A stretch of DNA of 64,000 nt, from NCBI GenBank assembly GCA_051747585.1, contig JBNJGH010000004.1, positions 6,852-70,851 of the forward strand, in the 5' to 3' direction. Shown one piece after another: positions 58,801-64,000 of the stretch. This DNA is from Candidatus Rifleibacteriota bacterium. GTDB lineage: Bacteria; Muiribacteriota; Ozemobacteria; Ozemobacterales; Ozemobacteraceae. Position numbers: made by a program. Position 1 is the first letter of the stretch. Each line of letters starts with the position of its first letter.

Positions 58801-61800
58801 ACTGATTAAGTTTTTACGGAGGTAATATGAGTAAGCAAAGAAGAAGAACATACCTGATTAAAACAGGCCTCCAGCTCAGATATATGGGAATCATCATATC
58901 TACCATGCTTATGGTTGCTTTTGGCGTGGGCTGGATAATTTATCATACTTCATGGAGTCAGATTGCCAACACACCAGATCTGACCCTTGATAAACTCGCC
59001 ATGATATTTGACTCTGTCAATGGGCTTCTTACACGCTGGGTAGTAGTTTTTGTTTTTATAATAGCCATTTTATCTATCTTTGTATCTCACAAAATAGCCG
59101 GTCCGGTGTATCGACTTGAAGAAACGACTCGAATCATCGCATCGGGTGATTTAACCTATCAGGTAAATCTCAGGCAGGGAGACGAACTACGCGATCTTCA
59201 GGAAGCCTTTAACAAAATGTCTGATTCATTGCGAAGCATGGTGGCAAAAGACAGAGAAATAATTGACAGACTTATTCTGGCAGGCAACAAACTCAAGGAA
59301 ACAATGGACCAACAGAAGCAGGACCCCAAAGCTATAGAAGGTGTTGCCGACGACCTTTATTCAATCATAGAAGAACTTAGACTTGTTACCAGTGGCTTCA
59401 AAATTGATGATAAAACCGAAAAAAACGATTCAAAATCATCAGAAGAAGACAATACTGCAAAAGAAGAACAAAAAGAAGAGCCCGAAGACAAAAAAGCTAC
59501 CGAAGAAACACCGAAAAAAATAGTCTGACTGCATCCCAACGATTCTCTGTGCTGCTCTGAGGGCTCTGTGGTTATTTTATTTGCGGCTTTGTGGCTTAGT
59601 GTGAGGGAGATTTTTTCTGAACTGGCAATCAATTCATAGTGCTTGCTGCAAAATTCCTTTTTATGTTAATTTCCTGAAATTAAAACTTCAGGAGATAAAA
59701 AATGTTAAAAGATGGCGAAAAGGGTGTAATTATTCAGCGCGATAAAAAGACTTATGCTGTGGCACCCCATATTCCCTGCGGAGTTGTAACACCAGATCTA
59801 TTACGCAAACTTGCCGATGTAGCAGAAAAACACCAGGTTCCGGCTCTCAAAATAACCAGTGCTGCCAGAGTCGCAATTGTTGGCATCAAAGAAGACAAAG
59901 TAGATGAAATATGGCAGGAATTAGGAATGGACAAAGGTGCAGCAACAGGATTATGCATTCGTAGCATAAAAGCCTGCCCGGGCACTACTTTCTGCAAAAG
60001 AGGAATTAGAGACAGCCTTGGTATTGGCATGAAGCTTGATGAGCTATATCACGGTCTCGAGTTGCCGGGAAAATTGAAAATTGGTGTAAGCGGCTGCCCA
60101 AATCAATGCGCAGAAACCTGCATTAAAGACATAGGTCTTGTTGGCTTCGGCAAAGGCTGGAAACTTCTTGTTGGAGGCAATGGCGGCGCACTCCCACGCC
60201 TTTCCAAAGAACTGAGCAAAGACCTTGAAGACGAACAGGCTCTTGCCCACATAGCCGCTTTGATTGAATTTTATAAAGAAAACGCCAGACCACATCAGCG
60301 CATGGGAATGATGATTGAGCGAATGGGCGGCTTCGATGAATTTTATCGTCAGTTTTTTGAAGCAAACCCCAGCCTGAAAGCCTGAAATATAGAGTAAAAA
60401 TTAAAGGGTAAGCTGCCGATATGTTCTAGATCATGCAGAATAAACGCTTTTTTGTAATTGCAGCAATAATAACAGGCTTTATAACTGCCCTGGTTCTAAA
60501 TGGAGCACAAGTTAGACGCCGCCCCCAAAGGTCGGGGTCTAGTTTTGTACCCAAAGGACGGCCCCATTACGAAAAAATTTTTGCCGATGGGAAAATGCGT
60601 ATAGCTGTATTCTGGGGCTGGGATCACCCCAGAGATACGATAATGTATACCTTTCCCGCCTTTGAAAATCTTAACGGCAAAAAGCTCTACTATAAAGGAC
60701 GTCCTGTAATGATCGAAATCGGAATGATCACTCAGATTAACGAAAATCCTAAACAGATATTCAAGAAAGCACTTGAAGACTCTACAATTGATGTAATAAT
60801 TTATTCGGGACATGCCAGATACGGCGGCGGAATGGCCTTTGCTTCAAAGACAGACATATTCAGAAGCGGAAACGGCGATCTTATAGAAGATCGTCACACC
60901 AAACCATATAAAGTTTACCGAGCTACTTCTGAAGACCTTGATAAGACCGATTTTTCTTCTAACTATAAAATTGTTATGCTCAACTGTTGCGATTCGGAAG
61001 GACATTTTCGCAAAAGCTGGTCACGCAGATTTAAAGAATGCTCTGCACCAGTAGATCTTCTGACAGTTGAATACCCCGTTTTTAACTATTATGACCATCG
61101 AAGAGTGTTAAATTTTCTTCAAGATCTTCTCCGTTTTGCCGACTGGAAAACCATCAAAAAAAGCTATGAATCGGAAGTACACAAACGCAAAAATCGCCTG
61201 ATTATAAAACCGGTCAAATTAACCGATTCCAGAGACCTTACCAGCCGTCGTCTCGGTTCTACCCAATAATCTTCAGCAATTCTCTGTGATTCTCTGAGGG
61301 CTCTGTGGTTATTTTCTTTGTGGCTTTGAGGCTTGGTGTGAGGCAAATTCTTTTCTGAAACGAAGTGATAGTCAATGACCGAGAATTACCCAATAATCTT
61401 TGCCTGCTTGACTCAGTTTGTTTGATATTGTAAGCTTTGGCTTAAATAACACCAGAGAGAACACCATATCAATCGATGAATAAAGTCAGAGCTTTTTTAG
61501 CAGGGAGTGGGTTGGCAGGCCTTGCTACGGCCTTTTACCTTATTAAAGATGGTAAAATTTCAGGCGAAAATATAACCATTTACGAAGAGCATGATTTTAC
61601 CGGCGGCAGTCTGGACGCATTTTACAACCCCGAATTCGATGGGTATTTTATGCGAGGATTCAGAATGCTCGAACCCTATGTTTACTCTGCCATGCTAGAA
61701 CTCATGTCAGATCTGCCCTGCCCTGTAGATCCTGACAAAACAATATTTCAGGATTTTATTGAATTTAACAACAGGGTTAAAACCTGCTCAAGATCTCGTC

Positions 61801-64000
61801 TTGTTGCCAATGGTCGTGCCATTAACGCCCGACCCCTTACCTTAAAAATAAAAGACAGAGTTAAAATTCTTAAACTCTTGACTCAACCCGAACACAAAAT
61901 AGAAAACCTGGCCATCGAAGACTATTTTTCCCCTGACTTCTTTAGCAGTAATTTCTGGTATCAATTCTGCACAACCTTTTCTTTTCAACCATGGCATTCT
62001 GTAGAAGAATTTAAAAGATATATACTCAGATTCTTTCAGGCAGCGCCTACTCTTGATACCCACACCTGCATAAGAAGTACCAGATACAATCAATATGAAT
62101 CTATTGCTTTGCCTTTAAAAAAATGGCTTTCAGCTAACAAAGTTAAATTTAAGCCAAATACTGATGTTGAAGATATAGATTTCAAAAAGCAAAAGAACAA
62201 ACTTCATATTAACAAACTTGAGCTTGTATCTGAAGGCAGAAAACAGATTCAAGAGATAAGCAAAAATGACCTGGTTTTTCTCAGCCTTGGCTCTATGAGC
62301 TCTAACTATTCAGTTGGAGCTATGAACAAAGCTCCGATAAAGAAATATAAAACAAAAAATCCTTCATGGGAATTGTGGAAAAAAATCGAAAACAGGAGCC
62401 CTCAATTTGGCAAACCCTCCGTTTTTTATACACATATAGATAAAACCAAATGGATTTCCTTTACCATAACTTTTTCAAAACCTTTATTTTTTAAATTGAT
62501 AGAAAAAATTACCCAAACACCTCCCGGCACCGAAGGACCAATGACATTGATCGATTCAAACTGGCTTATTTCATTTGCTCTGCCGCATCAGCCTCATTTT
62601 GTCGATCAGCCCCAACACCTTCAGGTTCTCTGGGGCTATGGACTTTACCCGGATAAAAAAGGCAACTTCGTAGATAAAAAAATGTCTGACTGCAACGGCG
62701 AAGAAATACTCATCGAAATTATTCATCATTTGAAATTTAAAAAATATCAGAACGAAATAATCAACTCAGCGAACTGCATACCCTGCCTTATGCCCCATAT
62801 TACAAGCCAGTTTATGCCAAGAAAAATTGGCGACAGACCCAAAGTGGTTCCGCCCTGCTCAAAAAACTTTGCCTTTATAGGCCAGTTCAGCGAAATTCCT
62901 CAGGATATAGTTTTTACCCTTGAATACTCAGTTCGCTCTGCTCAAATTGCAGCTTACTCTCTTTTAAATATTAACAAAACGCCAACCCCTATTTACCCAG
63001 GCTGGAAAAGACTGAAGCATGTTTTTAACATCGTTAGAACCGCTTTCAGATAAGGAATTTCAAAACCATGTTATCATCAAATATTACTATTGAAGGGCTT
63101 GAATACGAGATTCCTGACCAAATTGTTACCTCAGAACAAATTGAAGAGGAAATCAGTGCTACCATGCAGAGGCTCAAACTGCCCAAAGGTCTGTTAAAGT
63201 CTTTGACAGGAATAAAAGAAAGGCGTGTCTGGCCAGAAGGAACCACACCGAGCGAAATAGGTGTCAGAGTCGCCAGAAAAGTAATTGAAGCAACTGATAT
63301 TCCCGGCAGCAATATTGGTTGCATTATAAATACTTCGGTCAGCAGGAACTACATCGAACCCTCTGTAGCATGCCTTATACAGGGCAGCCTAGAATTATCG
63401 CCCGAATGCCTCAATTTTGATGTCAGCAATGCCTGCCTCGGCTTCTTCACCGCTATTCAGATTTTGACGCTGATGATTGAATCGGGACAGATTAAATACG
63501 GCCTGATAGTGAACGGCGAAACTTCAGGAAAACTTTTAAATTCGACCATTGCCAGATTGAAAAAACGAAATGTCACACCCGAAATATACCGGCGAAATTT
63601 TGCCGCTTTAACGCTTGGGAGCGGTGCAGCAGCAATGATTCTCGGGCACAAAAATTACAGCAGAACCAACCATTTAGTTAACGGCATTGTAAACCTTTCT
63701 GACACCAGACACAGCCGTTTATGTCTGGGCCGCATCGACCAGATGGAAGCCGACTCGACAGAAATTATGAAGCAGGGAATAAAGCTTGCCCGTAAAACCT
63801 GGAGCATTGCCGGATCAAGATTACCCAACTGGAAAGATGATAATATAGATCTTTACATTCCTCACCAGGTGAGTTTAAAGAATATTCAAGAACTCAGCCA
63901 GGCTCTGGGTCTGGAACTGGAGAAACAGCATCTGAGTTTCATGAACTACGGCAACATCGGTCCAGCCTCTGTACCAATAACCCTTAAAATGGCAGAAGAG

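Follow-up and report, generated by a model that had tools for sequence, protein, structure and literature searches.

Introduction

Enzymes of the OleA family are thiolases, and nearly all work on them has so far concerned their role at the start of olefin and beta-lactone pathways. In the known reaction, Cys143 accepts an acyl group, Glu117 removes a proton from the alpha-carbon of this group, and the carbanion attacks a second acyl-coenzyme A (acyl-CoA) (PMC8180931, PMC7064751). The 2-alkyl-3-keto acid that is formed decarboxylates to a ketone with a half-life of approximately 8 h, unless it is converted by OleD, OleC and OleB (PMC8180931, PMC7064751). The oleABCD olefin clusters of Bacteriovoracaceae and Micrococcales and the oleACD-type beta-lactone clusters (LstAB, NltAB) all use an enzyme of this family for the first step. 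Here, a gene pair at the end of a 64,000-nucleotide (nt) stretch of DNA from Candidatus Rifleibacteriota bacterium (GCA_051747585.1, contig JBNJGH010000004.1, positions 6,852 to 70,851) is described. In this stretch, which is referred to as the window, the gene of an OleA-family thiolase directly follows that of an oleate-hydratase-like flavoprotein, and, unlike in the clusters mentioned above, no OleB, OleC or OleD partner is found near the thiolase.

OleA-like genes outside ole clusters are not new as such. The main survey of the family, by Smith et al. in 2020, was restricted to those 251 of 920 OleA-like sequences that were flanked by two or more ole genes, and the genes without ole neighbours were set aside (PMC7064751). 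This figure indicates that OleA-like genes without clustered ole partners were already known to exist, in an uncharacterised state. The window thiolase likewise has no flanking ole gene in the 64-kb window, and its eight relatives have none within 10 kb.

The partner belongs to a family that has mainly been tied to detoxification until now. Well-studied members are the oleate hydratases (OhyA) of Staphylococcus aureus and Elizabethkingia meningoseptica, which carry a catalytic glutamate (Glu82 and Glu122, respectively). In S. aureus OhyA, a membrane-binding helix-turn-helix is located in the C-terminal domain (PMC10847778). Approximately 30% of the known Ohy sequences, mostly from HFam1, have a methionine at the catalytic glutamate position, and the Rhodococcus enzyme ReOhy, which carries M77, is active through a mechanism that has yet to be settled (PMC8403116).

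Both enzyme families at this locus are therefore known. What is new is a coherent, apparently OleBCD-independent clade of OleA proteins together with a co-inherited hydratase partner of the Met type. The two genes and their junction are located as follows:

61476..63053, + strand: gene of a short-form, Met-type MCRA-family fatty-acid hydratase (525 amino acids (aa); PF06100 and NF010584 matches)
63068..64000, + strand: gene of an orphan-clade OleA-family thiolase (311 of 339 codons inside the window; the gene runs off the end)
63052..63067, + strand: junction, with an AAGGA Shine-Dalgarno-like motif and a 14-nt gap (read from the sequence)

Recurrence of the gene pair

The genomic context was examined for eight relatives of the window thiolase that were obtained by protein search (P0002, P0005, P0008, P0011, P0016, P0023, P0027 and P0085). 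These are 87, 78, 65, 62, 60, 57, 56 and 52% identical to it, respectively (the full range is given as 52-88%), and P0085 originates from the genome of an Oceanicoccus isolate. Scans of genomes and metagenomes with the thiolase returned only distant relatives (at most 41% identity), and 133 loci of such canonical-type OleAs served as the control set.

Four of the eight relatives share with the window an MCRA gene that immediately precedes the thiolase gene on its strand, and in none of the 133 canonical-type loci is an MCRA gene present within 10 kb of OleA. The gap between the two genes is 14 nt in the window and 14, 12, 185 and -4 nt in the relatives, the last value being an overlap in locus L145. 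The identities of hydratase and thiolase to the window proteins drop in parallel (85/88, 74/79, 66/66 and 57/58%), and the genes that flank the pair differ in every case. Contigs of matching length in the hydratase and thiolase match lists suggest at least four further pairs. In a tree of MCRA proteins, the confirmed and presumed thiolase partners fall into one subclade that mirrors the thiolase tree and excludes two unpaired MCRAs (P0139 and P0169); bootstrap support for this subclade is weak (43%).

With random gene order, far fewer than 1 in 1000 genomes would have a given single-copy gene directly ahead of another given gene, which is an estimate and not a computed value. Given the five independent occurrences and the co-divergence of the two proteins, the adjacency is, judged from gene order and sequence, far beyond chance and represents a real, old association. 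It appears to be best explained by a bicistronic cassette that is inherited as a unit in uncultured bacteria, and some of the metagenome-assembled genomes with relatives bear the label Riflebacteria or Ozemobacteraceae. In GC content, the pair (37-44%) does not stand out from the window (40.6%), and there is no sign of recent transfer. A search of plasmids resulted only in a match from Kitasatospora, with 27% identity.

A preliminary description of this DNA, made from the sequence alone, had noted the pairing as one not known from a described system. This view held up in a search of the literature for 'OleA' together with 'oleate hydratase' as whole words, which returned incidental co-mentions and no description of the pairing.

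Two candidates for additional members of the cassette were rejected. The 278-aa open reading frame (ORF) upstream of the pair in the window has no homolog in the relatives and is not a third conserved gene. Small ORFs 3' of the thiolase gene in L140, L142, L144 and L146 are mutually non-homologous, except for those of L142 and L144.

The Met-type hydratase

The window hydratase is a full-length member of its family (EC 4.2.1.53), with 620 bits to Pfam PF06100 (MCRA) over residues 5-494 and 608.8 bits to the NCBIfam equivalog NF010584 'oleate hydratase' (cut-off 567). The solved structure that matches best is that of E. meningoseptica (4UIR, 1.6e-107), followed by the hydratases of Lactobacillus acidophilus and S. 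aureus. Approximately 500 residues can be aligned with the S. aureus and E. meningoseptica enzymes (E-values of 1e-100 to 1e-107), with which the window protein shares the N-terminus that binds flavin adenine dinucleotide (FAD); its GxGxxG motif reads GSGLAG and is located at residues 10-15. Tyr182 aligns with Tyr241 of the E. meningoseptica enzyme, and a tyrosine is invariant at this position in all 122 closest aligned homologs.

Two features set the window hydratase apart from these well-studied enzymes. The catalytic glutamate is absent: Met64 occupies the position of Glu122 in E. meningoseptica and Glu82 in S. aureus, within the motif RGFRML, versus RGGREM in the E. meningoseptica enzyme. 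Among the 122 aligned homologs, nearly all have methionine and a few have isoleucine or alanine at this position, and glutamate occurs in no listed motif variant. In addition, the protein is a short form, like its close homologs of 523-530 aa. Its C-terminus is approximately 40-55 residues shorter than those of the S. aureus and E. meningoseptica long forms, and it lacks the C-terminal extension that serves dimerisation and membrane binding in the long forms. Also, an adjacent thiolase is not known for the S. aureus and E. meningoseptica genes.

The Met-type enzymes are closer in these respects. ReOhy from Rhodococcus erythropolis (PDB 5ODO, HFam3) and the Met-type members of HFam1 likewise have methionine in place of glutamate, retain the equivalent of Tyr241 and have a shortened C-terminal domain. 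Since ReOhy is active, Met64 does not exclude hydratase activity. In overall sequence, ReOhy is nevertheless distant from the window protein (286 bits, versus 363 for the E. meningoseptica enzyme), and, unlike ReOhy, no member of the subclade of the window hydratase was found to be characterised. On sequence, the window protein is a member of the MCRA/oleate-hydratase family of the Met type and a putative fatty-acid hydratase. The preliminary description was right in its assignment to the oleate hydratases at the level of the family, as both family models show, and it overlooked the methionine at the catalytic position and the missing C-terminal extension.

The OleA-family thiolase and its orphan clade

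The complete thiolase (P0001) has 339 aa, of which the last 28 codons and the stop codon are located past the end of the window. It scores 355.7 bits against NF006720 (PRK09258; cut-off 285) and 111.6 bits against the FabH model TIGR00747 (cut-off 292), and all FabH models remain below their cut-offs. The same preference is seen for solved structures, with 219 bits (6.3e-64) for Xanthomonas campestris OleA (3ROW) and 78 bits (7e-21) for the best FabH. Identity to X. campestris OleA (PDB 3ROW, 4KU3; EC 2.3.3.20), over the full length, is 38% by BLASTP and 40% by structural alignment. The AlphaFold2 model (pLDDT 95.2, pTM 0.93) superimposes on OleA structures with a TM-score of 0.97-0.98 and a root-mean-square deviation (rmsd) of 1.1-1.3 A over 339 columns and without a gap, versus a TM-score of 0.82 and an rmsd of 3.3 A for E. 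coli FabH. Two alkyl channels and a pantetheine channel characterise the OleA-type fold.

Glu97, Cys123, His266 and Asn296 of the thiolase correspond to Glu117, Cys143, His285 and Asn315 of X. campestris OleA, and these are carried by the motifs YIEPS, SNAC, PHQVS and GNIGPASVP, respectively. None of 120 clade members and none of 49 OleAs taken from loci deviates at any of the four positions, which indicates that the Claisen chemistry is under selection. By its sequence, catalytic residues and overall predicted fold, the thiolase is an OleA-family enzyme, for which condensing activity is predicted.

In a neighbour-joining tree rooted on E. coli FabH (200 bootstraps), the split between FabH and the OleA family has 100% bootstrap support. 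Within the OleA family, the window thiolase and its homologs of at least 50% identity form a single clade (78%), which is nested among the OleAs of oleABCD clusters (Micrococcales, X. campestris and Bacteriovoracaceae) and of the oleA-oleB loci of Verrucomicrobia. The clade differs from X. campestris OleA in conserved substitutions (Ile116, Pro284, Cys105, Gly165, Leu308 and Ile or Met at 292, in X. campestris numbering) and in its lack of linkage to oleBCD. Position 116 is isoleucine in the clade (YIEPS) and leucine in all canonical sequences compared (YLEPS in X. campestris), and position 284 is proline in the clade (PHQVS) and threonine, cysteine, glycine or isoleucine in the canonical sequences. 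The role of residue 292 in channel A of OleA has been described (PMC8180931). At this position, Thr292 in X. campestris, the clade has a hydrophobic isoleucine or methionine. As a marker of the pairing, residue 292 was rejected, since paired and unpaired clade members are alike.

The preliminary description had assigned the downstream protein, running off the window, to OleA, and the family models, the residues, the predicted fold and the placement of the protein inside the OleA family all agree with this. The four motifs that it listed as the OleA signature are all present, with the refinement that YIEPS and PHQVS are variants specific to the orphan clade.

Homologs of OleB (alpha/beta-hydrolase), OleC (AMP-ligase-like) and OleD (3beta-HSD-like) were found within 10 kb in none of the eight clade contexts, as was cross-checked by tblastn with verified OleB, OleC and OleD of Bacteriovorax, and none is present across the 64-kb window, of which approximately 63 kb lies upstream of the thiolase. 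In the control set, oleB is located directly downstream of oleA in the majority of the 133 loci, and those of Bacteriovoracaceae and Actinobacteria have the complete oleABCD set.

Organization of the probable transcription unit

The TAA stop codon of the hydratase gene occupies 63051-63053 and the ATG of the thiolase gene starts at 63068, leaving the 14-nt gap GGAATTTCAAAACC. The preliminary description had placed an AAGGA Shine-Dalgarno motif inside this gap. The gap length and the motif are real, and the placement needs correction: AAGGA covers 63052-63056, where AA still belongs to the stop codon and GGA alone to the gap. The motif is 11 nt away from the thiolase ATG, and three of the four paired relatives also have TAAGG(A/G) just 5' of the start codon of this gene. 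No terminator-like site is present in the junction. In L068, the locus of the closest relative, a strong terminator, with a 14-bp GC-rich hairpin stem and a T-run, follows approximately 100 nt past the thiolase stop codon, and unrelated genes come after it. Because of the 14-nt gap, the lack of a terminator in the junction, the overlap of the genes in one relative and the terminator past the second gene in L068, the two genes are likely to be co-transcribed, as had also been proposed from the sequence at first sight.

A putative promoter is located upstream of the hydratase gene:

61408..61436, + strand: promoter-like element, TTGACT (61408-61413), 17-nt spacer, TAAGCT (61431-61436), approximately 40 nt upstream of the hydratase ATG

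TTGACT is part of a stretch of ~40 nt that hardly differs between the window and L068 despite different flanking genes, and TTGAC is also aligned in L138 and L140, where conservation is partial. This conserved stretch may be the promoter of the hydratase gene. The -10 hexamer TAAGCT is weak (3 of 6 positions) and was therefore missed by the scan for consensus promoters, which detected sites no more numerous than in shuffled sequence.

Proposed metabolic pathway

It is possible, and tentatively preferred here, that the orphan OleA thiolase and the hydratase act in a shared pathway towards hydroxylated long-chain keto acids or ketones. Cys123 of the thiolase would be loaded with a long-chain acyl group, of which the alpha-carbon would be deprotonated by Glu97 of the partner subunit. 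A head-to-head Claisen condensation without decarboxylation would follow, in which the alpha-carbon attacks a second acyl-CoA and a 2-alkyl-3-keto acid results. Without OleD, OleC and OleB, this keto acid would be the product itself or would decarboxylate to a long-chain ketone. The hydratase would add water across a cis double bond, either in the free unsaturated fatty acid before its activation or in the condensed keto acid, which keeps a free carboxylate and, in one of its chains, the same distance between carboxyl group and double bond. The end products would thus be hydroxylated long-chain keto acids or ketones and not olefins or beta-lactones. The anatomy of the locus, the families of both proteins, their conserved catalytic residues, the conservation and co-divergence of the pair and the lack of oleBCD nearby are observed, and from these we infer which substrates are used, which step comes first and that both enzymes belong to one pathway.

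Keto acids or ketones are the most economical products to assume for the clade, given four invariant catalytic residues and no OleBCD in the neighbourhood. A beta-keto acid, ketone or hydroxy-ketone is a plausible product on these grounds, and an olefin or beta-lactone is unlikely. The preliminary description had placed the pair in the frame of OleA(BCD), with olefins or beta-lactones among the products, a view that finds no support, as oleB, oleC and oleD are lacking within 10 kb in all eight clade contexts.

Several observations weigh against a shared pathway that is free of OleBCD. The pairing is not obligatory, as P0011, P0016, P0027 and P0085 have no MCRA neighbour and the MCRA homologs P0139 and P0169 have no thiolase neighbour. 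The hydrophobic residue 292 gives no sign of a fit to a hydroxylated chain, and an acyl-CoA ligase gene is not part of the cassette. OleBCD could be encoded elsewhere in the genomes considered here, and in the Opitutaceae loci, too, oleC and oleD do not adjoin oleA-oleB. The source contig (73,881 b) extends approximately 9.9 kb beyond the window, upstream, downstream or both. Finally, the search of sequencing runs returned only weak DNA matches (at most 9% of words) in sediment metagenomes and no RNA runs.

Under the strongest alternative, which is rather unlikely, the pair is a fatty-acid stress module, in which both genes are co-regulated from a shared promoter in response to the same stress and neither enzyme feeds the other. 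The hydratase would detoxify free cis-unsaturated fatty acids, and the thiolase would turn surplus acyl-CoA into inert neutral lipid in the form of ketones. Detoxification of antimicrobial unsaturated fatty acids is an established function of OhyA, for example in S. aureus (PMC7948970, PMC8612147). Each gene is also found without the other in close relatives, and the surroundings of the pair in the window are of a housekeeping nature and do not resemble a biosynthetic cluster. Efflux genes are often located nearby (MatE in L068, TetR with RND in L145, ABC with an adaptor in L142 and L144, and an EmrA-like adaptor with OEP in L149), but such genes are common everywhere and their association with these loci is a tentative one. 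The tight coupling of the two genes, with a 4-nt overlap in L145, and their long parallel divergence are, however, more typical of enzymes of one pathway.

It is less probable still that the thiolase performs no Claisen condensation and uses its acyl-cysteine as an O-acyltransferase or hydrolase. The hydroxyl group that the hydratase introduces would then be acylated by the thiolase to estolide-type esters or fatty acid esters of hydroxy fatty acids (FAHFA). Alternatively, the thiolase would supply the hydratase with free fatty acids released from thioesters or esters. Ester hydrolysis by OleA is unusually high and proceeds via acyl transfer to Cys143 (PMC7064751, PMC8180931). The formation of a hydroxyl group followed by its acylation is a chemical logic that suits a two-gene unit, and the clade-specific Ile116 and Pro284 adjoin catalytic residues. 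On the other hand, Glu117, which is required for the Claisen step, is invariant in 120 of 120 sequences, even if a general base could serve O-acylation too. The predicted fold also matches that of OleA without insertions or deletions, and a different function is required for those members of the clade that have no MCRA partner.

A canonical olefin or beta-lactone pathway, in which oleB, oleC and oleD are located just past the window or elsewhere and the hydratase modifies OleABCD substrates or products, is the least probable explanation: the nesting of the thiolase within the OleA family, the existence of split ole loci (in Opitutaceae, oleB adjoins oleA and neither oleC nor oleD occurs within 10 kb) and the continuation of the contig past the window speak for it, but oleB, oleC or oleD is found within 10 kb in none of the eight relatives and has no homolog in the window, the closest relative (L068) has a terminator and unrelated genes downstream, and most of the 133 canonical-type loci keep oleB directly downstream of oleA.

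In a more far-reaching and more doubtful reading, the orphan OleA clade would have a function independent of OleBCD and, with the co-inherited Met-type hydratase, would make a lipid class undescribed in bacteria. Such a lipid could be a long-chain ketone hydroxylated in mid-chain, a 2-alkyl-3-keto acid or, in the case of O-acylation of the hydratase product by the thiolase, an estolide-type ester. The producers of the lipid class would be uncultured sediment bacteria.

A coherent orphan OleA clade is thus defined, in which the Claisen machinery is intact and a hydratase partner recurs and co-evolves, and the two-gene unit is a directly testable case for the products of orphan OleAs. It also suggests a possible biosynthetic role for the hydratase family. 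Both families are of biotechnological interest, as they relate to hydroxy fatty acids, long-chain ketones and precursors of lubricants and fuels.

Related loci and genomic context

Multiple observations were made at the loci of other OleA relatives. Among the Opitutaceae, Verrucomicrobia and Pirellulaceae loci (L009-L067 and L075-L135), many of those from Verrucomicrobia have oleB next to oleA and no match to OleC or OleD within 10 kb. The Pirellulaceae OleA relatives have no OleB, OleC or OleD nearby. Outside the well-studied phyla, ole loci that are split or reduced may be frequent.

A second association between a flavoprotein and OleA, of a Pfam family different from that of the hydratase, was observed in the canonical clusters. 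In the oleABCD cluster of L005, the gene of a PF01593 flavoprotein (amine-oxidase/phytoene-desaturase-like; 8620-9999) ends 2 nt before oleA. A PF01593 gene is also located directly upstream of oleA in the other Bacteriovoracaceae clusters (L011, L017, L024, L025, L027, L030 and L033). Homologs with 42-66% identity recur near oleA in Verrucomicrobia, and are located 3-4.5 kb upstream in many Opitutaceae loci.

Two further gene associations were observed within the orphan clade. In L142 and L144, the unpaired orphan OleA-like gene is directly followed by the gene of a DoxX_2-like membrane protein (11056-11409 and 11057-11413, respectively; 117-118 aa), and the two copies are 68% identical. In the Oceanicoccus isolate (L149), an adh_short gene (9024-9830) precedes the orphan OleA-like gene by 170 nt and has the same orientation. 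The keto-acid product could be reduced by this short-chain dehydrogenase in that lineage.

In the window, the flanks of the pair consist of housekeeping genes, which include lspA, two lgt genes, accA, accD and genes of a pseudouridine synthase and a HAMP protein, and of the gene of a small sulfite/nitrite-reductase-like protein. No tRNA genes were found in the window. The 278-aa ORF mentioned above (60433-61269) follows the gene of the small reductase-like protein and has no family match. The reductase-like protein (59702-60385, 227 aa) is composed of the NIR_SIR_ferr and NIR_SIR 4Fe-4S/siroheme domains alone and resembles the C-terminal part of NirB. Further upstream (55244-57447), lspA (55244-55888) is followed by tandem lgt paralogues at 55900-56676 and 56680-57447, each of which matches PF01790 with approximately 200 bits.

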